A stretch of DNA of 64,000 nucleotides from Deltaproteobacteria bacterium CG11_big_fil_rev_8_21_14_0_20_47_16. Its GTDB lineage: Bacteria; UBA10199; GCA-002796325; 1-14-0-20-47-16. The position numbers and the translations under genes are program-made. The number at the start of each line of letters is the position of its first letter. Position 1 is the first letter of the stretch. Location: the NCBI GenBank assembly GCA_002796325.1, contig PCXA01000007.1, positions 145,780 through 209,779 of the forward strand. The letters are read 5' to 3'. The notes under the pieces are model-generated. The model ran no database searches. It saw only the letters and a program-made list of their open reading frames with translations, and was not told the origin of the DNA. Shown piece after piece: positions 23,707 to 41,283 of this stretch.

Positions 23707-24684
23707 TTACTGACCCAGCAAATATGCAAACATGAGTGGGGCAACGATTGTGGCATCGGACTCAATGATGAACTTGGGTGTTTCTGCGGCCAATTTGCCC
23801 CAGGTGATTTTTTCATTGGGAACGGCACCAGAATATGAGCCATAGCTCGTGGTAGAATCGCTAATCTGACAGAAGTAGCCCCAGAGTGGAACGCTTGTGC
23901 GCTGCATATCTTGGTGTAACATGGGAACGACACAGATGGGGAAGTCGCCTGCAATACCGCCACCGATTTGGAAGAATCCGAGTGATGTGTTCTTTGTGGT
24001 TTCGGTATAATAATCTGCCAACCACTTCATAGTTTGAATGCCGCCCTTAACAGTGGTGACATTTTTGACATTTCCTAACATGCAGTGTGCAGTGTACATA
24101 TTGCCTAATGTGGAATCTTCCCAACCCGGTACAAAGATGGGCAGATTTTTTTTGCTCGCTGCAACCATCCAAGAATCTTTAGGATCAATTTGATAGTGCT
24201 TTTCAATCGCACCACTGCGTAAAATTTTATACATGAATTCGTATGGGAAGTACTGCTCACCCTTATTGTCAGCCATTTTCCATTCTTCCAAAACGACTGC
24301 CTCAATGCGACGCATGGCTTCGCCTTCGGGAATGCAGGTGTCGGTGACGCGATTTAAATGGCGATCCAGCAGCTTTTGTTCATCAGCTGCAGTGAGGTCA
24401 CGATAATGGGGAACGCGTTCGTAGTGGTCGTGCGCTACTAGGTTGTAAATATCTTCTTCCAAATTAGCACCTGTGCAGCAAATGGCATGCACTTTGTCTT
24501 GGCGGATCATTTCAGCCAATGTCAGTCCCAATTCGGCGGTACTCATGGCTCCTGCGAGCGTCATGAACATTTTGCCACCTTTGGCCAAATGGGCCTCATA
24601 GGCCTTCACCGCGTCCATGAGTGCCGCAGCATTAAAGTGACGGTAGTTGTGCTCGATAAATTGTGAAACGGGACCTTTAGCCAT
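23707..24684 (-). CDS. Deoxyhypusine synthase-family protein (possible homospermidine synthase-like)
   Basis: Family recognised from overall sequence; AAGGAGG RBS before ATG 24684; ORF track start is a 5' extension. Confidence 0.75.
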   Translation of the reverse strand: MAKGPVSQFIEHNYRHFNAAALMDAVKAYEAHLAKGGKMFMTLAGAMSTAELGLTLAEMIRQDKVHAICCTGANLEEDIYNLVAHDHYERVPHYRDLTAADEQKLLDRHLNRVTDTCIPEGEAMRRIEAVVLEEWKMADNKGEQYFPYEFMYKILRSGAIEKHYQIDPKDSWMVAASKKNLPIFVPGWEDSTLGNMYTAHCMLGNVKNVTTVKGGIQTMKWLADYYTETTKNTSLGFFQIGGGIAGDFPICVVPMLHQDMQRTSVPLWGYFCQISDSTTSYGSYSGAVPNEKITWGKLAAETPKFIIESDATIVAPLMFAYLLGQ

Positions 24685-24779
24685 GATGCGCCTCCTTGAT
24701 TCTGTTTGCGTGATAAATATAGATGCTGTAAAGCCTCGATTAAACCGATCTGTCAAGAAATTCTGAAAGGATGATTCCC

Positions 24780-25955
24780 ATGGCACAGCTCAAAACCACT
24801 GATTATTTCAACATTAGCGGGCTTTTGACGGATGACGAAATTCAAATTCAGAACATGGCGCGTGATTTTGTGGTGGATGAAGTTCTGCCGGTGATTACGC
24901 AACATTATCGTGATGGCACGTTTCCCATGGAGCTGGTACCTAAGATGGGGCAGCTGGGATTTTATGGTGCCAATCTGCCAGAGGAATATGGCTGTGCGGG
25001 CTTGAATAACGTTGCCTACGGTATTTTGATGCAAGAGTTGGAGCGCGGTGATTCCGGTGTTCGCAGTTTTGCGAGCGTGCAGGGTGCACTCGTGATGTAT
25101 CCGATTTTTGCGTATGGTTCTGAAGAGCAAAAGAAGCATTGGTTGCCTAAACTGGCCAAGGGCGAGAAAATCGGATGCTTTGGTTTAACGGAGCCCGATC
25201 ATGGGTCTGACCCTGCGGGCATGGAAACCAAGGCACGTCGCGATGGCAACGACTGGGTGTTGCATGGGGCCAAGATGTGGATCACGAATGGAACCATTGC
25301 TGACGTAGCGGTGGTGTGGGCCAAAGATGAAGCGGGTGTGGTGCAAGGATTTTTGGTGGAGAAGGGCATGAAGGGATTTTCGGCGCCTGAAATGACCGGG
25401 AAATTAAGTCTGCGCGCATCGGTGACATCGGAGTTGGTGTTGGATGAGGTGCGTGTACCCGATGCCACGCATCGCTTGCCCAAGACACAGGGACTTAAAT
25501 CCGCACTGGGGTGCTTGACGCAGGCACGTTACGGCATTGCGTGGGGTGGTGTGGGTGCTGCGATTGCGTGTTATGAATGTGCGCTGGAATACGCCAAGAG
25601 TCGTGTGCAATTTGACAAACCGATTGCAGGGTTTCAATTGGTGCAGCGTAAACTGGTGGAGATGCTAACCGAAATTACAAAAGGGCAGTTGTTGGCATTG
25701 CAACTTGGTCGCCTCAAAGACAAAAATGAAGCCAAATTTTTTCATGTGTCGATGGGCAAGATGAATAATATTCAACTCGCTCGCGACTGCGCGCGCACCG
25801 CACGCGAAATTTTAGCAGCGAATGGTATTTTGGATGAGTACCCTGTGATGCGCCACATGATGAATATTGAATCGGTCTACACCTACGAAGGCACCAATGA
25901 CATGCACACCTTAATTTTGGGTGAGCACATCACAGGTATTCCCGCGTATCGGTAG
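24780..25955 (+). CDS. gcdH: Acyl-CoA dehydrogenase, glutaryl-CoA dehydrogenase-like
   Basis: GCFGLTEPDHGSD and YEGTNDMH motifs; about 390 aa. Confidence 0.8.
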   Translation: MAQLKTTDYFNISGLLTDDEIQIQNMARDFVVDEVLPVITQHYRDGTFPMELVPKMGQLGFYGANLPEEYGCAGLNNVAYGILMQELERGDSGVRSFASVQGALVMYPIFAYGSEEQKKHWLPKLAKGEKIGCFGLTEPDHGSDPAGMETKARRDGNDWVLHGAKMWITNGTIADVAVVWAKDEAGVVQGFLVEKGMKGFSAPEMTGKLSLRASVTSELVLDEVRVPDATHRLPKTQGLKSALGCLTQARYGIAWGGVGAAIACYECALEYAKSRVQFDKPIAGFQLVQRKLVEMLTEITKGQLLALQLGRLKDKNEAKFFHVSMGKMNNIQLARDCARTAREILAANGILDEYPVMRHMMNIESVYTYEGTNDMHTLILGEHITGIPAYR

Positions 25956-27463: not shown

Positions 27464-28027
27464 ATGGCTGAGAAGTGTCGGTGTGCCTGGGTAACAGACG
27501 ATCAAATTTATAAGGACTATCATGACAATGAATGGGGCCGTCCTGTTCATGACGACCAAAAATTATTTGAAGCGATTGTGTTAGATGCCTTTCAGGCGGG
27601 GCTTTCCTGGCTTACCATTCTTAAAAAGCGCGAAAATTTTCGCGAGGCATTCCATGGGTTTGATGTGCAAAAAGTGGCTAGTTACAACACGCGCCAAGTG
27701 GATTTGTTGATGCAAAATGCAGGTATTGTGCGCAACCGTCTTAAGATTCAAGCGGCTACAACAAACGCACGTCTCATTATTCGCATGCAAGAGCATCACG
27801 GATCGTTTGATAAATATATTTGGCAGTTTGTAAATGGTAAGCCCATCATCAACCATCGCAAAACAATTGCGGAAATACCAGCAACGAGCCCGGAATCAGA
27901 CGCCATGAGCCGTGATCTGAAGAAAAGGGGATTTAAGTTTATTGGATCGACGATTTGTTATGCATTCATGCAGGCCACAGGCATGGTGAATGACCATACC
28001 GTGGATTGTTTCCGATATAAGGCTTAA
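27464..28027 (+). CDS. tag: DNA-3-methyladenine glycosylase I
   Basis: Strong match to Tag signature: YHDNEWG, GLSWLTILKKRENFR, GSTICYAFMQATGMVNDH. Confidence 0.9.
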   Translation: MAEKCRCAWVTDDQIYKDYHDNEWGRPVHDDQKLFEAIVLDAFQAGLSWLTILKKRENFREAFHGFDVQKVASYNTRQVDLLMQNAGIVRNRLKIQAATTNARLIIRMQEHHGSFDKYIWQFVNGKPIINHRKTIAEIPATSPESDAMSRDLKKRGFKFIGSTICYAFMQATGMVNDHTVDCFRYKA

Positions 28028-29004
28028 ACCTTTCCGTGGGTTTCCCAGTTATACGCTGTTTCACAGATCGTGCGCAGGTTGTTGTACTGTGGTTTCCACC
28101 CCAGAACCCTTTGAATTTTATCTGAGTTGGCAATGAGTGCGGGTGGGTCACCTGCACGACGTGGCTTTTCAACGCACTTAAACTTCTTTCCACTCACATC
28201 CATAACCATGTTGAGAACTTCGCGAACGGAAGATCCTTGGCCATAGCCACAGTTCATGATTTCGGATTTTCCACCTTTTAACAAATAATCCAGCGCTGCA
28301 ACGTGGGCGTTGGCTAGGTCAACGACATGAATATAATCCCGAATACCGGTGCCGTCGGCAGTATCAAAATCAGTGCCGTAAATATCCACGTGGTCTCGTT
28401 TGCCACAGGCAGCTTCGCATGCCACTTTAATGAGGTGCGTGGCCTCGGGTGTTGCTTGTCCCAAGCTACCGTCGGGTTGAGCACCTGCCACGTTGAAATA
28501 CCGAAGTGCAACATAGTTAATGGCACCTGTTTTGGCCACATCGGCCAAAATCTTTTCAACCATTAGTTTGGATTCCCCATACGGGTTGATGGGGTTGGTG
28601 GGAGACGTTTCATCAACCATAGTTGTTTCGGAAACACCATACACCGCGGCGGTGGATGAAAAGAGGATGTTTTTAACGCCACTATCTGTGCAGGCTGCAA
28701 TCAGGTTTCGGCTCGCACAGGTGTTGTTAGCGTAATATTTAAGCGGATTCGCAACGGATTCTGGAACAACCGTGTAGCCTGCAAAGTGAATGACAGCACT
28801 GACTGCGTTGTCACGCATGAGTTGTGACATGAGTGCAATATCGCCGGCGTCTCCCTCGATAAATTTGGCATTTTTGGGAACGGCCCAACGGTGACCCGTG
28901 TATAAAGAATCTACAAGCACGAGTTTGAAACCAGCCTCATTCAGTTGCCTACATGTGTGAGACCCGATGTAACCCGCGCCGCCTGTGACCAGAATTGTGT
29001 TCAT
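28024..29004 (-). CDS. galE: UDP-glucose 4-epimerase
   Basis: ILVTGGAGYIGSH Rossmann motif and YGESK catalytic motif. Confidence 0.85.
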   Translation of the reverse strand: MNTILVTGGAGYIGSHTCRQLNEAGFKLVLVDSLYTGHRWAVPKNAKFIEGDAGDIALMSQLMRDNAVSAVIHFAGYTVVPESVANPLKYYANNTCASRNLIAACTDSGVKNILFSSTAAVYGVSETTMVDETSPTNPINPYGESKLMVEKILADVAKTGAINYVALRYFNVAGAQPDGSLGQATPEATHLIKVACEAACGKRDHVDIYGTDFDTADGTGIRDYIHVVDLANAHVAALDYLLKGGKSEIMNCGYGQGSSVREVLNMVMDVSGKKFKCVEKPRRAGDPPALIANSDKIQRVLGWKPQYNNLRTICETAYNWETHGKV

Positions 29005-29065
29005 ATGCTCCACAAAAGCATCTTTACTGCTCGATTGTCTACGATCTTTTTGATATAGAAAATCT

Positions 29066-29668
29066 ATGTCAAAACATTCAGCAGCTATTGCGCTGTTAGT
29101 CACGATACTTGCGCTTGGAATATCCTATATCGGTGCCTTTGATCGCTTGACCTGGTTTTTAGAGTCGCTTCCAGTGTTGATTGGCATTCCAATATTGGTT
29201 TTATCCCACAAGCGATTTCCACTATCGTCGTTACTTTATGGTCTTTTAGCCTTTCATGCAATTGTGTTGCTGGTGGGTGCGCATTATACATATGCCCGTG
29301 TGCCGCTTTTTGATTGGATTGGTGCTTCGTGTGGCTGGGGCCGTAACAATTATGATAAGTTTGCTCATTTTATACAGGGATTTATTCCGGCAATCCTGGT
29401 GCGTGAAGTTTTGATTCGTACGTCACCGCTTAAGGGAAATCGGTGGTTACCTCCATTGGTTGTAAGCACCTGTCTTGCGATTAGTGCAGCTTATGAATTA
29501 TTTGAATGGCTTGTGGCGGAAGCATTGGGTATTTCGGCAGATGACTTTTTAGGGATGCAGGGATATATTTGGGATACTCAAACTGATATGACAATGGCAT
29601 TGGTTGGGGCGATAATGGCATTGATTATTTTATCGCGGTATCATGATCGCTCAATAGCCAATATTTAG
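29066..29668 (+). CDS. DUF2238/YjdF-like membrane protein
   Basis: Multi-helix hydrophobic protein; family assignment by recall. Confidence 0.55.
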   Translation: MSKHSAAIALLVTILALGISYIGAFDRLTWFLESLPVLIGIPILVLSHKRFPLSSLLYGLLAFHAIVLLVGAHYTYARVPLFDWIGASCGWGRNNYDKFAHFIQGFIPAILVREVLIRTSPLKGNRWLPPLVVSTCLAISAAYELFEWLVAEALGISADDFLGMQGYIWDTQTDMTMALVGAIMALIILSRYHDRSIANI

Positions 29669-29686
29669 AATAGTTTAGGAGAAGCG

Positions 29687-31627
29687 ATGTCTACATCAAT
29701 TATTAATACACGCAAAATTGTACGTATGTTTTCAATTGTGCCCATGGTTATAGGTGGGGGAGTAATTCTGCTTTGGATTATCCATGAGACCCTGCCACCA
29801 TTATTTGATGAAGTGCTGGTCATGAAGCTCAATCCCTCAATTGGAATTTTTTTGTCAGGGGTGGCTATTTGGTTGTCACAAAGTGACTCTGCGCGAAATC
29901 AGTTAATACGCCGAATTTGTGGTATTATCATCTTGGCAATTGGTGCTATCGCAGTAATTGAATATCTATTTCATATCAATCTTGGAATTGATCAGTTATT
30001 AGTTGTGGATCACTTCCGTACAATTGAAGACCTTCCAGGTCGCATGCCGCCCCGTGCAGCGTTTAGTTTAACGTTATTGGGCATGGTTTTTCTATTTTCC
30101 GCGCAAAATTTAAAAACACGATACTTAAATTCATTTGTGTTTCTTATTGTAGGTCTGTCGTCATTGCAGGCGTTAATTGGGTACCTATACACAGCGCCAG
30201 CACTCTATTCATATACGCCGATTATTCGTATGCCCATACATGGTGCGATTGCATTTCACTTGTTAGCGCTAGGTGTGTGTCTGGGATACACGCGAGTGGC
30301 GATAATGGATGTTTTAGTTGCCAAGGGTAGTGGTGGGCGCATTTCTAGACGTTTGATTCCCGCAATAGCCTTTTTGTTATTATTGATTTGGTGGCTACGT
30401 TTGGAAGGACAGCGTGCCGGTCTATATAGTTTGGAAATGGGATCGGTAATTACCATTTTTATATCACTCAATGTGGTGGGCGCGCTAGTTTTATGGGGAT
30501 CCAATATTGTTCAAAAGTCTGAAGCGGTTTTAGAAAAGGAAACAGAGATTGCTGAGCAGGGTCGCCAACGACTTTATAAAATTTTGAATAACACCCCTGC
30601 CATTGTCTTTATCAAAGATGAAAAGGGTCATTACATTTTTATTAATAGCCAATTTCAAAATTTGTTTGGTGTGACACCTGAAAAATTTTTGGGAAAGACC
30701 GATTACGAACTTTTTTCAAAAGAATATGCCGATGTATTTCGTAAAAATGATGAGCAAGTAGCGCGGGAAGATAGGGCGATTCAAATGGAAGAAATCGTAC
30801 CTTTGGTTGACGGAAATCATTATTACTTGTCTGTTAAGTTTCCGTTGATTGATCCTGTGTTGGGCGTTCGCGGAATTTGTGGTATTGCAACGGATATTAC
30901 TGAGCGTAAGAAGGCCGAAGAGGCGTTAGAAACTGCTGCACAAATGAAGTCCAGCTTTGCATCAATGGTGTCGCACGAATTGCGTACGCCGTTGACGGTC
31001 ATTAAGGGCGCAGTGGAAATGGTTGAAGACGGTATTGACGGTCCCATCAATGAAAAGCAGAAGCAACATTTGGAAATTGCCAATCGCAATGTGGACCGAT
31101 TGAATCGGCTCATTGATAATATTTTGGATTTCCAAAAGTTGGAATCGGGGCAGATTAAGCTGAATATCACGTTAACTAATATCAATACCCTTATTAACGA
31201 GGTTGTCGAAGGGTTTGATCAAGTGGCTGCTGCAAAAAATATTCAAATTGTTCAAAATTTGCAAACCACCTTGCCAAAAGTGTGTTGTGATAAAGATTCA
31301 CTTATTCAGGTGCTGACGAATTTAATTAACAATGCCATCAAATTTATGGATCAGGGTAAAATTACAGTGACCTCTCAGCAAAAAGGCCAAAATGTGGAGC
31401 TGTGTGTGGCTGATCAGGGTGTTGGCATTCAGAAAGATGATATTCCAAAGTTGTTTCAGGCATTTAGTCGAATTGCCACCCCAGGGCACAAGTCACCGGG
31501 TACTGGATTAGGTTTGGTCATCTGTCAGAAAATTATCGAGGCCCATAAAGGGCGTATTTGGGTCGAATCAGAATTTGGTAAGGGAACACAATTCTATGTG
31601 TCGTTGCCAATCTCTCAAGGCTGTTAG
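29687..31627 (+). CDS. Membrane sensor histidine kinase with PAS domain
   Basis: N-terminal TM helices; PAS region; HisKA H-box SHELRTPL; HATPase_c G-boxes. Confidence 0.85.
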   Translation: MSTSIINTRKIVRMFSIVPMVIGGGVILLWIIHETLPPLFDEVLVMKLNPSIGIFLSGVAIWLSQSDSARNQLIRRICGIIILAIGAIAVIEYLFHINLGIDQLLVVDHFRTIEDLPGRMPPRAAFSLTLLGMVFLFSAQNLKTRYLNSFVFLIVGLSSLQALIGYLYTAPALYSYTPIIRMPIHGAIAFHLLALGVCLGYTRVAIMDVLVAKGSGGRISRRLIPAIAFLLLLIWWLRLEGQRAGLYSLEMGSVITIFISLNVVGALVLWGSNIVQKSEAVLEKETEIAEQGRQRLYKILNNTPAIVFIKDEKGHYIFINSQFQNLFGVTPEKFLGKTDYELFSKEYADVFRKNDEQVAREDRAIQMEEIVPLVDGNHYYLSVKFPLIDPVLGVRGICGIATDITERKKAEEALETAAQMKSSFASMVSHELRTPLTVIKGAVEMVEDGIDGPINEKQKQHLEIANRNVDRLNRLIDNILDFQKLESGQIKLNITLTNINTLINEVVEGFDQVAAAKNIQIVQNLQTTLPKVCCDKDSLIQVLTNLINNAIKFMDQGKITVTSQQKGQNVELCVADQGVGIQKDDIPKLFQAFSRIATPGHKSPGTGLGLVICQKIIEAHKGRIWVESEFGKGTQFYVSLPISQGC

Positions 31628-31640
31628 AAAGTAGCGTGCG

Positions 31641-32657
31641 ATGAAACGATTAAAAATAAGTTTAGTGCTTTTAACATTGGTTTGCGCAGGGATTGCATAT
31701 GCCATTCCTATGGATCAGGTGCCCAATCCAAAATCCAGTGCGGGCCTTTGGGTGCAAGATCAGGCTCAGATTTTGGGTCCTGCATATATTCAACTTATTA
31801 ATAACGTGGCTGAGCAATTACATGACAAGGCGGGTGTTGAAATGGCACTTGTCACTGTCGATAATCTGGATGGGGAGTCCGTTGAAAATTATGCCAACAC
31901 GCTGTTTAATCGTTATGGTGTGGGTGAGGCAGGCAAAGATAACGGTATTCTCATTTTAATTGCGCGCGATGATCGCAAAACGCGAATTGAAGTGGGCTAT
32001 GGCTTGGAAGCCGTGATTAACGATGCCAAAGCAGGGCGTATTTTAGACCAGACCGCCATTCCATGGTTCCATGATAATCAATTTGGTCGCGGCCTGTATG
32101 AAACCAGTAAAGCTCTAGCTGTTGAAATTTCGGGAGCGATTGGCTCAACGCTGAGTGTGACAGATCCCGCGACTTGGCCAGAACAACCCACAGTTACATT
32201 TGAAAAAGCCCCTCTACGTAAAGGGGTGGTGGTGCTGGTCATTATGTTGGTGTCAATTTTGTTTGGAATCCCAACAATCCTGTTGTTGCTATGGTATGGC
32301 CTGCGATATGCACTTCAAAAATCACCTGAAAAGAAACTGCTGGCCGTGTCGCCGAACGATTCAGTGGAAGCGGCGTTTTTGTTTATGGGGCCCATTGTTG
32401 CAGGCATGATCGGATACGATCAAGGAAATCTATGGGTTGGATTAATTGGCGCGCCCATTCCCATCTTCTTTTGGTGGCTGGTTCGAAAATTTCGCGTGCG
32501 TCTTGCAAAACCACTGCTTGATGCAGGAGTTAAGTTGCCCAAGGAAGAAATAGAAAAACGACGTAAGAAATTGCATTCGAGTAGTCACGGTGGTGGTTCT
32601 CGTAGTAGCTTTGGTGGTGGCAGTTCCGGTGGTGGTGGAGCAAGTCGTAGCTTTTAA
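31641..32657 (+). CDS. TPM-domain (YgcG-like) membrane protein with Gly/Ser-rich C-terminal tail
   Basis: Signal peptide; TPM core GILILIARDDRKTRIEVGYGLE; two TM helices; tail HGGGSRSSFGGGSSGGGGASRSF. Confidence 0.7.
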   Translation: MKRLKISLVLLTLVCAGIAYAIPMDQVPNPKSSAGLWVQDQAQILGPAYIQLINNVAEQLHDKAGVEMALVTVDNLDGESVENYANTLFNRYGVGEAGKDNGILILIARDDRKTRIEVGYGLEAVINDAKAGRILDQTAIPWFHDNQFGRGLYETSKALAVEISGAIGSTLSVTDPATWPEQPTVTFEKAPLRKGVVVLVIMLVSILFGIPTILLLLWYGLRYALQKSPEKKLLAVSPNDSVEAAFLFMGPIVAGMIGYDQGNLWVGLIGAPIPIFFWWLVRKFRVRLAKPLLDAGVKLPKEEIEKRRKKLHSSSHGGGSRSSFGGGSSGGGGASRSF

Positions 32658-32670
32658 ACGGAGGCGTAAA

Positions 32671-33384
32671 ATGCAATCAAAAATAAAATGGGTTGTTTGT
32701 ATGGCTGCAATGATGATGATCTCTGGCACGGCACATGCCTACAAAATTAAATCAAAGTCGATTACAATCAATAAACCCAAAGAGCGTTATGAAGTGTCTG
32801 TGTCATATCCCGTTATTAAGGGATTAAAGAATAAAGATATCGAAGCGACACTGAATCAAACTATGTTGGATTGGGCACAAGCGCGCATTACCCAGTTCGA
32901 CAAGGTAATTGCAGAGATGCAAAGTGAAGGAATGGGTTCTAATTTGCCAGGTGAAAATGCGCTCAGTATTACATTTAATGCAAGGGTAAAGAGTGACGTG
33001 ATGTTGGGCATTTCGTGGGATGTGTATAAAAATTTTATTGGCAATGCACACCCGAGCGAAGTGCTAAATCCAATTATGTATAATCTTGAAACGGGCAAGG
33101 TCATTGCGTTGGCCGACCTTTTTAAACCCGGGAGCCATTATCTCAAGCGACTATCTAAAATTTGTACGGAACGTCTCAATGAAAGTTTTGCAGGCTCGGG
33201 CTTTACATTATTTGAAGACGGACTCAAACCCACTACTGAAAATTACGCCAACTTCTTAGTGCGACCCGAAGGGCTCTATTTCGTATTCAACCCTTACCAG
33301 GTTGCTCCGTACGTTGCTGGGATTCAAGAAGTGGTCATTCCTTATCCATTCCTACAAGATATTTTGTTGACTAAGTATCAGTAG
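32671..33384 (+). CDS. DUF3298/DUF4163 (RsiV-like) secreted protein
   Basis: Signal peptide MQSKIKWVVCMAAMMMISGTAHA; domain by recall. Confidence 0.6.
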   Translation: MQSKIKWVVCMAAMMMISGTAHAYKIKSKSITINKPKERYEVSVSYPVIKGLKNKDIEATLNQTMLDWAQARITQFDKVIAEMQSEGMGSNLPGENALSITFNARVKSDVMLGISWDVYKNFIGNAHPSEVLNPIMYNLETGKVIALADLFKPGSHYLKRLSKICTERLNESFAGSGFTLFEDGLKPTTENYANFLVRPEGLYFVFNPYQVAPYVAGIQEVVIPYPFLQDILLTKYQ

Positions 33385-33424
33385 GGCATCGCCTAAACCT
33401 TGCATTTTTAGCGTATCTATATAT

Positions 33425-33467
33425 AAACGCCACGAGAGTTGATCGAAGGAGACCGCGTGGCGTTTTT
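33425..33467 (+). promoter_or_regulatory. Perfect 10-bp stem hairpin (AAACGCCACG / CGTGGCGTTT) with 21-nt loop and T-run, enclosing the aminotransferase RBS and start
   Basis: Read directly; loop holds GAAGGAG, stem holds the GTG start candidate at 33457. Confidence 0.5.
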
Positions 33468-34776
33468 GCATCCCCACATTAAAACCAAACTTCCCGGACC
33501 TAAATCCAAAAGGGTCCTGGCACTCGATGAAAAATACGTCTCACCGTCTTATACCCGTAGCTATCCTCTTGTTGCCAAAAGTGGTCGTGGGTCGTTTATT
33601 GAAGACATGGACGGCAACGTCTTTCTCGATTTTACATCCGGCATTGCAGTGACTGCGTCAGGCCATTGTCACCCACGTGTGGTAAAGGCGATTCAAGAGC
33701 AAGCCGCCAAACTCATTCACATGTCAGGCACCGATTTTTATTATCCCCAACAAGCAGAGCTTGCTAAGCGCCTGGTGAACCTGTTTCCTGGTGGAAAGGG
33801 CAGTGGTAAGGCATTCTTGACCAATTCGGGCGCAGAATCCGTCGAAGCCGCATTAAAGCTCGCCCGCTGGGTGACCAAACGTCCGCAGATCATTTCATTT
33901 TTGGGGGCTTTCCATGGGCGTACCATGGGCGCGTTGTCCGTGACTGGGAGTAAAATCACACAAAAGGAACGATTCTTTCCGCTCGTTCCAGGTGTGACGC
34001 ATGTGCCGTATCCGGATCCGTATCACACGCCCAAAGGGATGACACCGGATGACTATACCAACTTTTGTTTAGACTGGATTTCTGAACGCATTTTCAAAAC
34101 GATTGTGCCACCATCTGAAGTTGCTGCAATTATTGTCGAACCCATTCAAGGTGAGGGTGGATATATTGTCCCTCAAAATAGTTTCTTCAAAGGATTGCGC
34201 AAAATTTGTGATGCACACGGCATTTTGCTGATTGTTGATGAAGTACAAAGCGGAATTGGACGCACGGGCAAAATGTTTGCAATCGAACACACGGGTGTAA
34301 CACCGGATATTATTTGTATCGCCAAGGGCATTGCTTCAGGATTGCCGTTGGGTGCCATGATCGCGCGCGGGTCTATTATGCATTGGACAACCGGTGCACA
34401 CGCCAACACATTTGGGGGTAACCCTTTGGCCTGTGTGGCGGCAACCGCCACGTTGGATTTGTTAGATGAAGGCATGATGAAAAATGCGGCCAAGCAAGGT
34501 GAGTATTTGATGAAAAATTTGCAGGGCATGATGCGTCGCCACTCTGAAATTGGAGATGTGCGGGGCAGAGGCCTCATGGTGGGTGCTGAAATCGTGTCTG
34601 ACCGCAAACGTAAGACCCGCGCACCCAAACGGCGGAACGACATTGTCGATAAGGCGTTTCGCAAGGGGCTTCTGCTTTTAGGCTGTGGCCCCAATACCAT
34701 TCGGTTTGCGCCACCGCTTTCTGTGACGCGTGCCGAAGTGGATATGGCACTCAAAATATTTGAGGCATGTTTATGA
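33457..34776 (+). CDS. Class III PLP-dependent aminotransferase (GabT- or lysine-aminotransferase-like)
   Basis: KLPGPKS N-terminus and DEVQSGIGRTGKMFA lysine region; start is GTG 33457 or TTG 33439. Confidence 0.85.
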   Translation: MAFLHPHIKTKLPGPKSKRVLALDEKYVSPSYTRSYPLVAKSGRGSFIEDMDGNVFLDFTSGIAVTASGHCHPRVVKAIQEQAAKLIHMSGTDFYYPQQAELAKRLVNLFPGGKGSGKAFLTNSGAESVEAALKLARWVTKRPQIISFLGAFHGRTMGALSVTGSKITQKERFFPLVPGVTHVPYPDPYHTPKGMTPDDYTNFCLDWISERIFKTIVPPSEVAAIIVEPIQGEGGYIVPQNSFFKGLRKICDAHGILLIVDEVQSGIGRTGKMFAIEHTGVTPDIICIAKGIASGLPLGAMIARGSIMHWTTGAHANTFGGNPLACVAATATLDLLDEGMMKNAAKQGEYLMKNLQGMMRRHSEIGDVRGRGLMVGAEIVSDRKRKTRAPKRRNDIVDKAFRKGLLLLGCGPNTIRFAPPLSVTRAEVDMALKIFEACL

Positions 34777-36329
34777 AAGATAAAATCAGTTTATTATCGG
34801 GTAGCGTTGTTGAAACGGGCACCAAGACATTTACCTCTATCAATCCTGCCGACACATCAGACACAGTTGCCACATTTGCGCATGCCAGTCGTGACCAGGT
34901 GAAAGTCGCCTGCGAGCGTGCACGCAAAGCATTTGCCAGTTGGAAAAAAGTACCTGCACCGGTGCGAGCGGGCATTATTCAAAACTGGGGTCGCTTAATT
35001 GAATCCAACAAAGAAGCGTTATCGCAATTGGTGAGTCGCGAAATGGGCAAACCATTGCGCGAAGCGCGCGGCGATGTGCAAGAAGCGATTGATACATGCA
35101 ATTTTTTTGTGAGTGAAGGGCGCCGCTTGTATGGCATGACCGTTCCATCAGAGATGGCCAATAAAGAGTGTTATACCTATCGCCGTCCGATTGGCGTCTT
35201 TGGTTGTATTTCTGCTGGCAATTTTCCGGTTGCGGTGCCGTCCTGGTATTTTGTGCCGGCGTTACTCTGTGGCAACACCTGCGTGTGGAAGCCCTCGGAA
35301 GATTCACCACTGACATCCTACTACCTGACGCAACTATTGTACAAAGCAGGCCTGCCAGACGGCGTGTTTTCAGTCGTGTTTGGTTCGGGTGCCAAGGGGC
35401 CAGGGGAATATTTAATTGATGGCGTGAATGACGGATGGATCGACAAATTTGGATTTACGGGGTCTACTGAAGTTGGTCGCCATATCGGCGAAGTCTGCGG
35501 CAAAAATTTACAAACGCCGTGTCTAGAGCTGGGTGGCAAAAATCCTATGGTCGTCATGGACGATGCGGACTTGGAATTGGCCACGACGGGCGCGCTGTGG
35601 TCTGGATTTGGTACCGCTGGCCAACGCTGCACCAGTCTGGGTAATTTGATTCTTCATACTCAAATTCGCGAAAAATTTCTCGGCATGCTCATGAAAAAAC
35701 TGGCCGCCATGGTGATCGGCGATCCTGCGAACCCCACAATTACATATGGTCCCATGATCAGTGAAAAATTCATGAATGATCACTTACGTAATCTGGACAA
35801 GTTGGTTAGTAAAACCCATAAGCTTTTGACGACGCAAAATGGCCGTATTACAGAGAAGAATCCCTGGGCTAATTGGGTTGGGGAATCTCCTGACGATGGC
35901 TACTTTTGTTTTCCCACAATTGTGGACAATGTCACACCAGACGATGAAATTTATCGGACCGAAACGTTTGGTCCCATGTTCAATGTCATGACGTGCAAAA
36001 ATTTAGATGAGGCTATCCGGTTGGCAAATGGTACCGGTTACGGCCTCTCATCAGCCATTTACACGAACACACCGGCGTCCGTGTACCAGTGGAAGGAAGA
36101 CATCAACGCCGGGATGACGAGTATTAACAATTCAACCACGGGTGCTGAGGCCCATTTGCCCTTTGGGGGCAATGGGAAGTCCGGCAACGGGTCGCGCCAA
36201 TCCGGCGTATGGGTATTGGATCAATTCACACGGTGGCAGTCCGTGAACTGGGATATGAGTGGAAAACTGCAGCTGGCCCAAATGGATACCGGATATGTAA
36301 GCGCAGATCTAGAGTACCGCATTCCCTAA
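34773..36329 (+). CDS. NAD(P)-dependent aldehyde dehydrogenase
   Basis: LELGGKNP and FTGSTEVG motifs, catalytic Cys in GQRCTS; ATGA overlap with aminotransferase stop. Confidence 0.85.
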   Translation: MKDKISLLSGSVVETGTKTFTSINPADTSDTVATFAHASRDQVKVACERARKAFASWKKVPAPVRAGIIQNWGRLIESNKEALSQLVSREMGKPLREARGDVQEAIDTCNFFVSEGRRLYGMTVPSEMANKECYTYRRPIGVFGCISAGNFPVAVPSWYFVPALLCGNTCVWKPSEDSPLTSYYLTQLLYKAGLPDGVFSVVFGSGAKGPGEYLIDGVNDGWIDKFGFTGSTEVGRHIGEVCGKNLQTPCLELGGKNPMVVMDDADLELATTGALWSGFGTAGQRCTSLGNLILHTQIREKFLGMLMKKLAAMVIGDPANPTITYGPMISEKFMNDHLRNLDKLVSKTHKLLTTQNGRITEKNPWANWVGESPDDGYFCFPTIVDNVTPDDEIYRTETFGPMFNVMTCKNLDEAIRLANGTGYGLSSAIYTNTPASVYQWKEDINAGMTSINNSTTGAEAHLPFGGNGKSGNGSRQSGVWVLDQFTRWQSVNWDMSGKLQLAQMDTGYVSADLEYRIP

Positions 36330-36363
36330 TGGGACTTGTGCACCTGTAGAAACGAGTTTCACA

Positions 36364-37776
36364 ATGTTTGGTCGCTTAGCTGTAAATCGCGATCAGGTGG
36401 ACGAATGTCGCAATAAGGCGCGCCTTATTGCCGAGCATATCCGCAAGATTGCAGAACATCACACAACCCTATCTGTTGAACAAGCCACATTGCGTGCGTT
36501 GGGTGCAGCAGGGAATTCACCGCAACCCATCATTCATGCCATTGCCAAAAAACTCGGTCCACAGTCGCTTAAGCTAGGTGTGGCGGGTTGGTTGGGGCGC
36601 ATCATGGTGGCACACAAATTGTCTCCGGAAAAGGCAGCTCAATTTTTAGCGCATCATGGATTGGGTAAGCCTGATTCTTTAAAGGATGTCCCCTGGAGTC
36701 AGGCACAGCGGGTGGTGCGCGAGTCTTTTGATAAATGGTCACGTAGTTTGCCGAAGCGCAGCAATGGGCGCATGAGGAATGGACAGTTTCGAGTGGCGGT
36801 ACAGGTGGAAACGGGCGACGCTCAAAAAGATTTAGCGCAGCTTTACTCTGCTTGGAAGGAATCTGATTTGGCCGTGGTGCAGGTGCCATATGGTTTGTCG
36901 GCGGATGGTATTGCCTCTCAGCGAGGTGGATTTATTTTTAAGAAGGGTTATCCTTTGCAAAAACAGATGCGTCGGGCGGTAGCAAAAAATGGTTCCGACG
37001 AAAAGTTGGTTTGCTGGGCAGGGGCAATGGCGCCTGAAACCGCAGTTGTGGCCGCTGAAATCCCTAGAACTCGTATGCGTGTGGACCCGATTTCCCGCAT
37101 TCATCAGGAAAAGATGGATCCACGCAAGGCTGTTATCGAATACAATATGATTTTGCGATTGTCGGCACGCACAGGTCTGCGATTGCACAATAATTTACAA
37201 GCATGGACTAGTTCCGCGTACGAAACCCACTTTTATCAAGCGATAGCCATGCAAATTGTTCTAGAGCAGTGGCTTATGTATTATCGCGGTGAACCCGAAG
37301 CCCAAGTAATTGTCTTGCCTGAGATCGCATCTCAAAATGGGGTACCCGATTTGGTTTCTGCGTTGGCGCGTAATCAATTGTGTCGCGAAATTTTTCCCCA
37401 GTCTGAAATGTGGCAACACACAGATGCCCCAAGTGCTGCATGGGACTCTGGTGTTGCGGCTGTTATTGGTCAAAGTGGTGTGATGGTGCCACAGACTGTT
37501 GATCGCAAATCAATTGCTGCGCTAGGAGCGGTATTCAAGCCACTTGCGTATGAATGTCAATTCAGCGATCACGGTCAACTCAGTCGTCTAATGCATACAT
37601 TGCTCGATCGCAGTATGAAGGAATTGCTTCGCCTATATCGCAACACCTGGAGTAAAGTTGTTCAACAGGATCATAGTGGTTTATTTGCCATGTCCAAGTT
37701 CACACATGGCAGTGATACTGTAATTGAAAAGGATCGCCGTTACTGGAACCCAATGGAAGAATGGTTCGGAGGTTAA
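36364..37776 (+). CDS. Lysine 5,6-aminomutase alpha-subunit (KamD)-family protein, orphan
   Basis: N-terminal EHHTTLSVEQATLRALG, internal CREIFPQ and C-terminal KDRRYWNPM resemble KamD motifs as recalled; no B12-binding beta subunit adjacent. Confidence 0.5.
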   Translation: MFGRLAVNRDQVDECRNKARLIAEHIRKIAEHHTTLSVEQATLRALGAAGNSPQPIIHAIAKKLGPQSLKLGVAGWLGRIMVAHKLSPEKAAQFLAHHGLGKPDSLKDVPWSQAQRVVRESFDKWSRSLPKRSNGRMRNGQFRVAVQVETGDAQKDLAQLYSAWKESDLAVVQVPYGLSADGIASQRGGFIFKKGYPLQKQMRRAVAKNGSDEKLVCWAGAMAPETAVVAAEIPRTRMRVDPISRIHQEKMDPRKAVIEYNMILRLSARTGLRLHNNLQAWTSSAYETHFYQAIAMQIVLEQWLMYYRGEPEAQVIVLPEIASQNGVPDLVSALARNQLCREIFPQSEMWQHTDAPSAAWDSGVAAVIGQSGVMVPQTVDRKSIAALGAVFKPLAYECQFSDHGQLSRLMHTLLDRSMKELLRLYRNTWSKVVQQDHSGLFAMSKFTHGSDTVIEKDRRYWNPMEEWFGG

Positions 37777-37777
37777 T

Positions 37778-38704
37778 ATGTCCGGAGTTGGCATTATTTT
37801 AAATCCGCATTCGCGTAGTAACCGCCGCAATCCCGGTCGTGTCAGGCGTTTGGGGTTCATTGTAGGTGATAAAGGGTCGTGCCACGCGACCAAAGATATT
37901 TTGGATGTGGGGCGAATTGCGCAGCAATTTAAGGAGCGTAATGTAGAGATATTGGGGATTAGTGGTGGTGATGGTACCAATCATTGTACGTTGACGCGTG
38001 TGCTTCAAGTGTATGGCGACGCCAAGCTACCTAAAATTGCATTCCTACGTGGTGGGACCATGAATAATGTGGCAAATTGCATTGGAATCAAAGGAACGCC
38101 CGAGCAAATTTTAGCTAATTTGATTAGTAAGCATGACGCAGGTGAAGAATTTAAGACGGTTGAGCTGGATATGATGACTGTGAATGGAGAATATGGATTT
38201 TTGTTTGGTGTTGGTGTGGTGGAGCGCTTTATGGAACATTATTACCGAGTGAAGGGATCAATGGTTTGGGCGGGTGTTTTGCTTGCACGTTGCATTCTTG
38301 CGCAGATTTTTAGGACACCATTTATCGATGAAATGTTTGAACGCTTTGACTGTAAAATTGAAGTAGATGGTGAGGTGTGGCCGTATAAAAATTATAATAT
38401 CATCCATGCCGGAACGGTTGAAACCTATGGATTAGGTTTCGATCCCTTCTATCGTGCACGTGAAAGGGAAGGGCACACACATATTATCGGATCGTCTGTT
38501 TTGCCATCCGATATTGGTTGGTCGCTCCCTAAGATCTGGATGCGCAAACCCACAAACTGTGAAAATGAATTAAGTTCTGTGGCAAAGCGTGTTGTAATCA
38601 CGTTTTCTGAGCCTCAGCCATATTTTGTAGATGGGGATATCAAAGCACCTACCACCCGCATTGAAATATCCTGTGATAAGCGAATTAGTTGTATTGTGAG
38701 TTAA
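37778..38704 (+). CDS. DAGK_cat-family lipid kinase (diacylglycerol / sphingosine / ceramide kinase-like)
   Basis: GGDGT motif; GGAGG RBS; start 2 nt after KamD-like stop. Confidence 0.7.
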   Translation: MSGVGIILNPHSRSNRRNPGRVRRLGFIVGDKGSCHATKDILDVGRIAQQFKERNVEILGISGGDGTNHCTLTRVLQVYGDAKLPKIAFLRGGTMNNVANCIGIKGTPEQILANLISKHDAGEEFKTVELDMMTVNGEYGFLFGVGVVERFMEHYYRVKGSMVWAGVLLARCILAQIFRTPFIDEMFERFDCKIEVDGEVWPYKNYNIIHAGTVETYGLGFDPFYRAREREGHTHIIGSSVLPSDIGWSLPKIWMRKPTNCENELSSVAKRVVITFSEPQPYFVDGDIKAPTTRIEISCDKRISCIVS

Positions 38705-38706
38705 TC

Positions 38707-41283
38707 TTACTGAAAATCATACATCTCTATGCCGCGCTCGGGATTGGCGGCAAAGACAATGCTACCAGAAGAATCAATGTCGGTGAATTGACATTCGGAG
38801 CAGTTCTCTCCAAACCCGCCATCCAGATCCAAAAGGGCAGCAGGATGTAATCCGTTCGTGCCGTTTAATTGGACAAGGTAATGACCACCAGCTGACACTA
38901 CTTTTCCTGTGGGGGCATCAACTGCTTCCTTAAAGATATTGAAACCGATATCCAAAATACGTGTGGTGGTAGCGCTTTCAATCCAACGCAGGAAACCATT
39001 GGGGTGTAAGTTGATAAACGTGTTCTGAAGTCGAACAGCAGATAGGCCAGATGCAGTATCGGCTTGTGGAAGTGGTGTAATTTCACCAGTTGGATTACAT
39101 GAATTGATGTCGGGTGCCATTTGTGGGCTAACATGCATATTCATTAACCACACATTGTACGTAGGGTTATAATGTTGGAAGAATCCCCTTAGGACAAAGT
39201 CACCTGCTTGAGGATCTGGAACAACACTTAGGCGACCCAAAAATTGAGCTTGATCATTGAGCTTTCCATAGCTGGTATTCCATGAATAATTATTGTTGGG
39301 ATCAACGATATCGCTGCATCCTTGAATAGTTGCTACGCGATTGAACATGGAAGCTGCAGAAATGTCCATTTGTGCAACGATAACGCGATACCGATTGGCA
39401 ATACCGTCCCATCCATGAACTAAAATTGCAAGATGGTAGATATTGGGTAATGCAGGATTGGTAAATACTTTGATATCATCAACACGTTCAAACTCACCGT
39501 TAACTCCCATTCCGCTAAATGCTCCCAAGGTATATAGATCAAATATACCAGTTTTATTGGAAGCCTTACTTAGAGAAAAGGCCATGACGGCAGGACCCTT
39601 GATGGCAGTGCTGATATTGTCACCAGTAATGGTATCCTTATAGACCCTCACACGTGGTCCTAGTGTGCCATGGCGCACATCAAAGATGAGACCACCCGAG
39701 TGAAATAGTCTGGCATTATTAGCGTCTGCCACGGAGTCATTATCTTGAGCATTGACGATCGGAAATGATGCATAATCATCAGATACTGTACTCTGAAATA
39801 CAGTCGCGTTCTTGGCCGTGTCGTTATAGCTGACAGATCTATTGCCAATGTTCAGTACTTTTGTGATGGCGGTGTATGGTACAGTCGTTGGTTCCCCTAG
39901 ACCATTTTGATAGTCTTTGTGCTCCCAAATAGCCGTTGTGGGACCAGTTGGTAGAAACTGTGGTACTGTGACAATCGTCTTAACGCCTACGTTGATTTCG
40001 TCAGTAGTAGATCGCATTGTTGCACTACGAACATAATCAAAAGGTTGTTTGGTGGGCCACACAGACCATTTTTGTTGAGTTGGTCCGGCAAAAAAGTTGT
40101 CAACGCGCGCAATGCTGTCCAAGCCACGAATGAATGCTGTAGAAACAAAAGTGTCCATGCGCCCCATTCGGAAATCACCAAGTTTTGCAGGAATGCCAGA
40201 CCATAGGTTTGCGATTGGAGTGCCAATGGGTGTGTTATAAGTTGCAATACCACTTTCCAAAACGGTGGGTGCTGAGAGTTGATAGCTTGTGCCAAATAAG
40301 AATATGGCTGTGGAGGTAATGTTAATATCTGACGCAAAGAATCGATCAAACTTTCCAAGTTGCATCACAAATGGCTCAACAGGTGTCTGACGAGCAATAT
40401 CGATCAAATATGCAGTTGATTGAAATGACAGCCATTCGTTTTGTAATGCCAGCTTGAACTGATCTGCACTTACAAATTCTTCTGGTAATCGTGATGACGT
40501 TAAGAATGCAGCTAATGTACTATCTGCTACAACTTTAGTGGGATGAAAGAGGCGTTTATCCTTGGCATTTGCAGGATCCACAGGATGATCCTTGGCTTGA
40601 TACGCAACAAACATGCAGCCAAACCCCAATTGAAGATCAGAAAGCTTTGCAATGAGTACGTTGTCATCAGCCACCATGTAGACCATTTCAGTAGGCTGCT
40701 CTCCTGCAGATAAAATTTGGTTTTTGGCAGTGGCAACGGATCGGATGCGCGTGATGGCATCTACGGACTTTTGGGATACAACTGAAAATGAATTCCCATT
40801 GTAATTCAGGCCAATAATATCGAGACCGCCGTCTGTTCCAACAAGCACTGTTGGATTGCTCGCATTTCCAGTAATAATAATGCTGCGGATCATGTTGTGG
40901 GTAGTCAAGGAAAGCGAATCACCAATATGTAATTTCCGTCCCTCATTCCATACCGGAATATAGCCAGAGAGTTGCTTGATGATGGCATATGCTGTTGTGG
41001 TTCCACCCCAGCTTTTACGATAGGCCCGCTGCATGGCAGTAGTGGCATATGTGGTTAAACTGACGGGGTTACCTGTTGTAATGTCTGAAAAGGCCCATTG
41101 TCCTGGGAGAGTGCCACATTCAGAGACCTTGGTGACGTTGCCAACGGCAGGGGCCTCAATAGTGGTAGGAGTAATGGTCGTTGTCGGGTTTTCAGGCGTT
41201 ATGTCGCCACTGCCGCCACATGCAGTCAAAAGTGTGGCAGTTAACAGTGTAAAAATAAAGGGTTTTTTAATAAGATCCCCCAT
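38707..41283 (-). CDS. Large (858 aa) lipoprotein, no recognisable domain
   Basis: Lipobox LLTACGGS; GGAGG RBS; Thr/Asn/Gly-rich, beta-rich composition. Confidence 0.6.
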   Translation of the reverse strand: MGDLIKKPFIFTLLTATLLTACGGSGDITPENPTTTITPTTIEAPAVGNVTKVSECGTLPGQWAFSDITTGNPVSLTTYATTAMQRAYRKSWGGTTTAYAIIKQLSGYIPVWNEGRKLHIGDSLSLTTHNMIRSIIITGNASNPTVLVGTDGGLDIIGLNYNGNSFSVVSQKSVDAITRIRSVATAKNQILSAGEQPTEMVYMVADDNVLIAKLSDLQLGFGCMFVAYQAKDHPVDPANAKDKRLFHPTKVVADSTLAAFLTSSRLPEEFVSADQFKLALQNEWLSFQSTAYLIDIARQTPVEPFVMQLGKFDRFFASDINITSTAIFLFGTSYQLSAPTVLESGIATYNTPIGTPIANLWSGIPAKLGDFRMGRMDTFVSTAFIRGLDSIARVDNFFAGPTQQKWSVWPTKQPFDYVRSATMRSTTDEINVGVKTIVTVPQFLPTGPTTAIWEHKDYQNGLGEPTTVPYTAITKVLNIGNRSVSYNDTAKNATVFQSTVSDDYASFPIVNAQDNDSVADANNARLFHSGGLIFDVRHGTLGPRVRVYKDTITGDNISTAIKGPAVMAFSLSKASNKTGIFDLYTLGAFSGMGVNGEFERVDDIKVFTNPALPNIYHLAILVHGWDGIANRYRVIVAQMDISAASMFNRVATIQGCSDIVDPNNNYSWNTSYGKLNDQAQFLGRLSVVPDPQAGDFVLRGFFQHYNPTYNVWLMNMHVSPQMAPDINSCNPTGEITPLPQADTASGLSAVRLQNTFINLHPNGFLRWIESATTTRILDIGFNIFKEAVDAPTGKVVSAGGHYLVQLNGTNGLHPAALLDLDGGFGENCSECQFTDIDSSGSIVFAANPERGIEMYDFQ

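Follow-up and report, generated by a model that had tools for sequence, protein, structure and literature searches.

An orphan PAS sensor kinase and two envelope proteins in a fast-changing gene slot of a deltaproteobacterial genome

In a 64,000-nucleotide (nt) stretch of contig PCXA01000007.1 from Deltaproteobacteria bacterium CG11_big_fil_rev_8_21_14_0_20_47_16 (hereafter the window), three consecutive genes encode a membrane-bound PAS sensor histidine kinase, a TPM (YgcG-type) membrane protein and a protein with DUF4163 and DUF3298 domains. We consider it probable that this is an ordinary orphan kinase, which signals to a distant, probably CheY-like regulator and is probably co-transcribed with two envelope proteins that sit in a fast-changing slot of the genome. 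The original prediction for this stretch, which was made from the sequence and saw in the trio an envelope signalling module with unconventional output, found no positive support in our analysis: in close relatives the kinase and DUF3298 genes come and go independently of each other. The three products (PIR20841.1, PIR20842.1 and PIR20843.1) are all carried as 'hypothetical protein' in NCBI.

The kinase is an orphan. A receiver-domain hidden Markov model (HMM) made from six textbook response regulators, with which all reading frames of the window were searched, found nothing (best E 0.04), and the same HMM recovered 7 of 7 Pfam-annotated receiver open reading frames (ORFs) in three control loci. 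This search confirmed the earlier observation that the kinase has no response regulator in the window. A standard kinase–regulator pair lying just outside the window is also excluded, because the kinase is more than 29 kb from either window end. No receiver was detected in the related loci L001, L003, L005 and L087-L091 (approximately 85 kb) either, and similar profile searches of the window yielded no LemA gene, second kinase gene or second TPM gene. Pfam gives PAS, HisKA and HATPase_c alone in the kinase, whose C terminus lies 3 residues past HATPase_c, leaving neither a fused receiver nor a histidine-containing phosphotransfer (HPt) domain. Because homologues outside the clade of close relatives described below adjoin single-domain receiver genes (directly 3′ and overlapping in 3 of the 3 full-length cases examined, at L006, L173 and L174) or, as many further homologues do, carry a fused receiver as hybrid kinase–receiver proteins, the family by all appearances signals conventionally, and the window copy has evidently lost its adjacent partner.

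By its sequence, the kinase is of an ordinary type. Its H-box, HELRTPL, begins at the phospho-acceptor His430 (codon at 30974-30976), and the N-box (NLINNAIKF), G1 (DQGVG) and G2 (GTGLG) motifs are intact. Because it stays below every NCBIfam equivalog cut-off, we class it on sequence as a generic PAS sensor kinase. Pfam returned nothing for amino acids (aa) 1-289 even at E ≤ 1; nevertheless, this region matches 10,757 50%-identity cluster representatives (E ≤ 1e-3), in which it forms the N-terminal part of signalling proteins of 270-1600 aa. Within it, D102 and R221 are invariant and the loop GIDQLL...PGRM is conserved. An AlphaFold2 model of the membrane domain reached a predicted local distance difference test (pLDDT) value of 83, and a Foldseek comparison of this model with the PDB gave nothing significant (best E 0.35). 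The eight-helix domain thus appears to be a sensor module of very wide occurrence for which there is neither a Pfam model nor a similar solved structure.

Judging from domain content and intact motifs, the membrane domain and the cytoplasmic PAS domain would most likely sense a membrane-associated or intracellular cue, and the kinase would autophosphorylate on His430. The phosphate would then go to a response regulator whose gene lies elsewhere in the genome; by analogy with the kinase homologues, this partner is most likely a CheY-like protein with a receiver domain alone. There is no need to invoke the two envelope proteins as the output of the kinase.

That the slot changes fast can be read from seven related metagenomic loci, which were found through the closest homologues of each protein and by then reading their contigs. 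The window has the order DUF2238, kinase, TPM, DUF3298. A partial kinase gene, TPM and DUF3298 follow one another in L087, and TPM and DUF3298 in L091/L092; the order in L090 is kinase, YjbQ, TPM and DUF3298, then seven extra genes that include a toxin–antitoxin pair. DUF3298 is absent from the other loci, where we found kinase and TPM (L088), kinase, a second, 296-aa kinase, TPM and an unrelated low-complexity protein of 187 aa (L003/L004), or YjbQ, TPM and a low-complexity protein of 183 aa, with no kinase anywhere in 15.7 kb (L089). TPM is the sole constant gene across these loci between the housekeeping genes and the promoter of an aminotransferase cluster, and the kinase and DUF3298 genes have been gained or lost independently among close relatives. 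The flanking proteins YjbQ, adenine glycosylase, aminotransferase, aldehyde dehydrogenase and DAGK_cat are 70-91% identical to those of the window, DUF6790 67-68% and the LysAminoMut_A-like protein 51-61%, and the kinase and TPM proteins are 36-41% and 38-61% identical to their window counterparts. Because the clade loci are such close relatives, gene order shared among them says little about shared function and mostly reflects inheritance.

Further genes mark the variable stretch. An extra kinase gene lies between the large kinase gene and TPM in L003 (10033-10923) and L005 (3465-4088); the 296-aa protein has two membrane helices, a loop of approximately 8 residues and no sensor domain, as in the intramembrane-sensing type, and its core is 52% identical to that of the large kinase. 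Toxin–antitoxin genes, namely HipA with a helix-turn-helix partner and a HepT-like gene with a nucleotidyltransferase gene, occur in or beside the stretch together with duplicated ORF6N genes (L003 2235-3694, L089 808-2276 and L090 12734-13598), which fits with frequent gene turnover there.

The ORF list bears out that the kinase, TPM and DUF3298 genes are codirectional at the positions given in Table 1. The gaps measure 18 nt between DUF2238 and the kinase gene, 13 nt between the kinase gene and TPM, and 13 nt between TPM and DUF3298, with all four genes on the + strand. Because these gaps are only 13-18 nt and no terminator lies between the genes, DUF2238, kinase, TPM and DUF3298 are likely transcribed together. 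Co-transcription of the kinase gene with the two envelope-protein genes is plausible, although a consensus promoter scan of positions 28800-34000 proved uninformative, with promoter-like sites no more numerous than in shuffled sequences, and is silent on internal promoters either way. The terminator scan of the same region, which found none between the genes, likewise gave counts not above those of shuffles. DUF2238 may be the first gene of the kinase transcription unit; it was not found at the corresponding position in any related locus (it is not 5′ of the kinase in L003, L088 or L090). The start of the third gene is most likely ATG 32671, which is preceded by a GGAGG ribosome-binding site and begins a signal peptide common to the homologues. 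A start at GTG 32590 was rejected, because the reading frame would then extend 68 nt into the TPM gene and gain a Val-rich N terminus that is not conserved. An Rfam search of 27500-35000 at E ≤ 1 gave zero matches, as did the PADLOC models against the four proteins, among which there is thus no known anti-phage defence system.

Both envelope proteins carry export signals. In the TPM protein, a signal peptide with predicted cleavage after AYA21 precedes the TPM_phosphatase domain (PF04536; aa 38-160, nt 31752-32120, E 5.7e-36, 123.7 bits against a cut-off of 22.1, model positions 1-123 of 125), which is followed by three predicted membrane segments. Of these features, a hydropathy scan placed the signal peptide and two membrane segments above threshold, and the third segment and the cleavage site were read from the sequence. 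The C terminus is a Gly/Ser tail (aa ~308-338, ...SSHGGGSRSSFGGGSSGGGGASRSF), in which the residues GGG.SGGGG.S are invariant in the 15 sequences of our alignment A1. Pfam, hydropathy and this alignment together agree with the earlier description of the gene product as a TPM (YgcG-like) membrane protein with a Gly/Ser-rich tail. In the aligned subfamily, the last membrane helix is separated from the C-terminal tail by one or two cytoplasmic zinc ribbons (CxxC...CxxC); a ribbon is present in 14 of 14 relatives, and the window protein, which keeps the tail, is the sole one of the 15 to lack it. Because positive residues follow helices 1 and 3 and the relatives carry zinc ribbons, we infer that the TPM domain is exported to the periplasm and that the tail, beyond the three membrane helices, is cytoplasmic. 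On this topology we rejected a role of the TPM protein as phosphatase of the kinase phosphohistidine, as it would place the TPM domain outside and the dimerisation and histidine phosphotransfer (DHp) domain of the kinase inside the membrane. By sequence, the TPM domain has the PDB relatives 7tbr, 2kw7 and 5anp. The role of the family is disputed, as is a phosphatase or nucleotidase activity of the TPM domain: TPM proteins have been described as phosphatases or, more recently, as chaperone-like aids to membrane-complex assembly (PMC11237479; bioRxiv 10.1101/2025.01.14.632903), and a literature search on 'YgcG' found no functional study.

The third protein combines a PdaC/DUF4163 domain (PF13739, aa 34-129, E 2.6e-9) with a DUF3298 domain (PF11738, aa 148-225, E 3.1e-20). 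Its signal peptide has a predicted cleavage site after AHA23, an AxA site conserved across homologues (alignment A7), and the hydropathy scan found no segment above threshold, that is, no membrane anchor. Close homologues of 49-62% identity number approximately ten in 5.8 billion proteins.

Outside the clade, TPM genes keep other company. Scans with TPM alignments identified a recognisable TPM gene in 139 loci, 70 from genomes and 69 from metagenomes; the metagenome counts given here and below are those among the matches listed for a clade-specific TPM alignment and concern distant TPM loci of 35-44% identity. Within two genes of TPM, the genome loci contained LemA in 53 cases, a kinase in 2, a receiver in 1 and DUF3298 in 0, and the metagenome loci LemA in 39, a receiver in 1 and neither kinase nor DUF3298 (0 each), which brings the two sets together to 92 loci with LemA, 2 with a kinase and 0 with DUF3298. 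An unbiased Pfam scan of the immediate TPM neighbours found LemA 26 times upstream and 10 times downstream, and no kinase or DUF3298 family was among the 25 commonest neighbour families listed for either side. The genome scan returned no close relative: the best match, at 42% identity, was in a metagenome-assembled genome of Bdellovibrio sp., where the nearby kinase is of a different, soluble type and a DUF308 gene separates it from TPM. No further clade member was among the matches listed for the metagenome scan. P0252, a DUF3298 homologue of 36% identity, has neither a TPM nor a kinase neighbour.

Several observations weigh against taking the kinase for an ordinary orphan with incidental neighbours. 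The clade comparison comprises only seven loci, most of them on short contigs. The kinase gene is 5′ of TPM in 5 of the 6 informative clade loci and overlaps it by 4 nt in L088, and the gene of the extra 296-aa kinase in L003 likewise runs 4 nt into the TPM gene. Four loci, namely the window, L087, L090 and L091, have DUF3298 after TPM. Finally, the TPM gene occupies the slot that the receiver gene has in homologous operons elsewhere.

The recurrence of TPM and DUF3298 could mean that these two are the functional unit, a membrane-tethered TPM protein and a soluble binding protein that would act in envelope maintenance or assembly, with the kinase a mere neighbour. A DUF3298 gene is directly 3′ of TPM in the window, L087, L090 and L091/L092, a close DUF3298 homologue sits right after the TPM gene in 3 of 3 related loci examined, and, as noted above, both proteins have export signals. 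However, L003, L088 and L089 have TPM without DUF3298, DUF3298 neighbours TPM in 0 of the 139 broader loci, and the 36%-identical homologue P0252 stands without TPM. We think that such a pair is unlikely.

The position and overlap of the kinase genes suggest another explanation, namely a clade-specific accessory pairing in which the TPM protein would assist the orphan kinase, and in the relatives also the small second kinase, as co-sensor or modulator. A periplasmic event at the TPM domain would reach the kinase through contacts of the membrane helices or the cytoplasmic tail, and the DUF3298 protein would be an optional periplasmic partner. In favour of such a pairing are the kinase gene 5′ of TPM in 5 of 6 informative clade loci, with the overlaps of 4 nt in L088 and L003 and the gap of 13 nt in the window, and the absence of an adjoining receiver from every clade locus. 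The TPM protein spans the membrane, and its relatives have a cytoplasmic zinc ribbon. The extra kinase in L003 and L005, moreover, has the two helices and ~8-residue loop mentioned above, and kinases with two membrane helices and a tiny loop typically depend on accessory proteins for sensing. On the other side, L089 retains TPM without any kinase, yjbQ sits between kinase and TPM in L090, a kinase is near TPM in only 2 of the 139 other loci, and the clade relatives are too close for their gene order to be informative. The window TPM protein also lacks the zinc ribbon, the most obvious cytoplasmic interaction module. Taken together, the pairing seems rather unlikely. Bolder still is the idea that TPM has replaced the adjacent regulator as operon partner of the kinase, serving as a trans-membrane co-sensor by way of its exported domain, three helices and zinc-ribbon/Gly-rich tail, with DUF3298 as an exchangeable periplasmic ligand-binding subunit; we regard this as improbable.

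For the DUF3298 protein, the original prediction had named the anti-sigma RsiV type, and this held for the fold of the RsiV ectodomain; neither an anti-sigma domain nor a membrane anchor was found in the protein, nor a sigma gene in the window. An AlphaFold2 model (pLDDT 87.5) gave TM-scores of 0.59-0.77 with 3CYG, RsiV (5JEN), BF2082 and PA4972 and fitted none of them much better than the others; for 5JEN the structural match had an E of 1.3e-11 and a TM-score of 0.64-0.74, and the sequence match in the PDB an E of 1e-4. Sequence searches agreed with these fold matches and added MPT64. The NCBIfam RsiV model scored 57.9 bits against a cut-off of 250 and aligned over model positions 84-282 only, and an HMM for extracytoplasmic function (ECF) sigma factors, made from only two sequences and used without a positive control, found nothing in the window at E ≤ 1. 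We conclude from the sequence and the model that this is not an anti-sigma factor but a putative soluble, free-standing protein of the periplasm, whose two-domain fold, as in the RsiV ectodomain, 3CYG and PA4972, would serve binding. It is accordingly very hard to believe that it relays envelope damage to transcription as a lysozyme-type receptor or anti-sigma factor: the ectodomain match to 5JEN and the weak RsiV match favour this, but the protein has only a cleavable signal peptide in place of an N-terminal sigma-binding domain or membrane anchor, its RsiV score is far below the cut-off, that limited ECF sigma search was empty, free-standing 3CYG and PA4972 match about as well, and MPT64 shares these domains but does not bind lysozyme (PMC5014341).

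An orphan kinase with two probably co-transcribed envelope proteins therefore remains our preferred reading of this stretch. Orphan kinases are common, as are envelope proteins of the uncharacterised TPM and DUF3298 kinds, and every gene here belongs to a known family; the three-gene arrangement is limited to a few close relatives and unstable even among them. If a functional link between kinase and TPM held true, it would give the very large YgcG/TPM family its first role in signalling. Of more general use may be the widespread unmodelled membrane domain of the kinase and the conserved promoter and hairpin that delimit the four-gene cluster described next.

Downstream, the gene string ends at a conserved boundary. 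The 72-nt gap after the DUF3298 gene contains a promoter-like element, TTGCAT-16-TATAAA, and then a hairpin whose 3′ arm includes the Shine–Dalgarno sequence and GTG start of an aminotransferase gene. The TTGCAT-16-TATAAA motif has a single match in the 64-kb window. Element and hairpin are conserved in six related loci regardless of the upstream gene, and the hairpin arms covary, reading AAACGCCACG/CGTGGCGTTT in the window and AAGCCCTCCGTC/GACGGGGGGCTT in relatives. Because the promoter-like element is conserved whatever gene precedes it, we predict that the four downstream genes form a unit of their own and that the gene string of the kinase ends at 33384. The same conserved promoter-like element led us to reject the possibility that the aminotransferase cluster begins with TPM. 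If transcription starts just past the -10 element, the cluster's own transcript would lack the 5′ arm, and we speculate that the hairpin might then act only on read-through RNA. The four genes (33457-38704), which are kept in every relative, encode a class-III aminotransferase, an aldehyde dehydrogenase, a LysAminoMut_A-like protein and a DAGK_cat lipid-kinase-like protein. The LysAminoMut_A-like protein (470 aa) weakly matches the TIM barrel of the lysine 5,6-aminomutase alpha subunit (62.9 bits), and no beta/B12 subunit is adjacent.

Other features of the window were noted in passing. On the - strand at 38707-41283 lies a gene for an 858-aa protein with a lipoprotein-type N terminus (LLTAC) and no Pfam family on record; unrelated small genes take the homologous position in L089. 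A gene of the deoxyhypusine-synthase family (PF01916) at 23707-24786 (-) stands beside an acyl-CoA dehydrogenase gene, as taken from precomputed annotation only. GC skew is positive in all 2-kb bins of the window but one and the cumulative skew climbs steadily; the window appears to be confined to one replichore, with neither origin nor terminus inside it.

Table 1. Positions of the gene string, the kinase domains and the downstream boundary within the window
Feature	Position	Strand	Details
DUF2238 (YjdF-like) membrane protein gene	29066..29668	+	Pfam PF09997, E 2e-54
Sensor histidine kinase gene, 646 aa	29687..31627	+	NCBI PIR20841.1
Kinase, N-terminal membrane sensor domain, aa 1-289	29687..30553	+	~8 hydrophobic helices, short loops
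Kinase, cytoplasmic PAS domain, aa 300-408	30584..30910	+	PF08448 PAS_4, E 2.3e-21
Kinase, HisKA dimerisation/phospho-acceptor domain, aa 420-488	30944..31150	+	PF00512, E 1.7e-21
Kinase, HATPase_c catalytic domain, aa 535-643	31289..31615	+	PF02518, E 2.5e-30
TPM/YgcG-type membrane protein gene, 338 aa	31641..32657	+	PIR20842.1
DUF4163(PdaC)+DUF3298 protein gene, 237 aa	32671..33384	+	PIR20843.1
Cluster boundary	33398..33466	+	promoter-like element 33400-33427, hairpin 33425-33466

Each of the three proteins can be set beside better-known systems. RsiV of Firmicutes (PDB 5JEN; PMC5014341) is an anti-sigma-V factor that also acts as lysozyme receptor. It has a sigma-V-binding domain in the cytoplasm, a membrane helix and an ectodomain, and it is the two-domain DUF4163+DUF3298 fold of the ectodomain that the window protein has in common with it. 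The window protein, in contrast, lacks the cytoplasmic sigma-binding domain and the membrane helix, and no adjacent sigV-type gene was found. From the result with MPT64, the authors of the RsiV structure concluded that lysozyme binding is not general to the fold (PMC5014341). Closer in architecture are 3CYG from Fervidobacterium, PA4972 (4E72) from P. aeruginosa, BF2082 (3S5T) from Bacteroides and MPT64 (2HHI) from M. tuberculosis, which like the window protein are free-standing, exported and composed of the DUF4163/DUF3298 fold alone. None of these structural matches has an established biochemical role, and their identity to the window protein is 15-19%; 3CYG is the best match in both sequence and structure.

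With the TPM proteins of the YgcG/COG1512 family, the window protein shares a signal peptide, an exported TPM domain, a membrane anchor and a Gly-rich tail ending in GGGGASR[GS][FW]. This family includes widespread LemA–TPM gene pairs and B. subtilis YdjH of the PspA operon (PMC11237479). Unlike these, the window TPM gene has neither a LemA nor a PspA neighbour, and the TPM genes of the clade adjoin a kinase where those of the broader family adjoin LemA.

Linkage of a kinase gene to a membrane-protein gene has known precedents. In LiaF–LiaS and YycH/YycI–WalK, the kinases rely on co-transcribed membrane accessory proteins, and there, as in the window, a membrane protein with an exported domain is encoded in close linkage with the kinase. 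Those systems retain an adjacent response regulator, however, and the linkage seen in the window is not kept in L089 and L090. The nearest relatives in design are the kinases P0026 and P0043 (cyanobacterial, at L006 and L174) and P0064 (L173), which have the same full-length domain order as the window kinase (29-32% identity, 87-98% coverage) and identical catalytic motifs. In kinases of this type, the receiver is either fused or encoded by one or two overlapping genes directly downstream, whereas the window kinase has no receiver within at least 29 kb on either side and is followed, in the downstream position, by the TPM gene.

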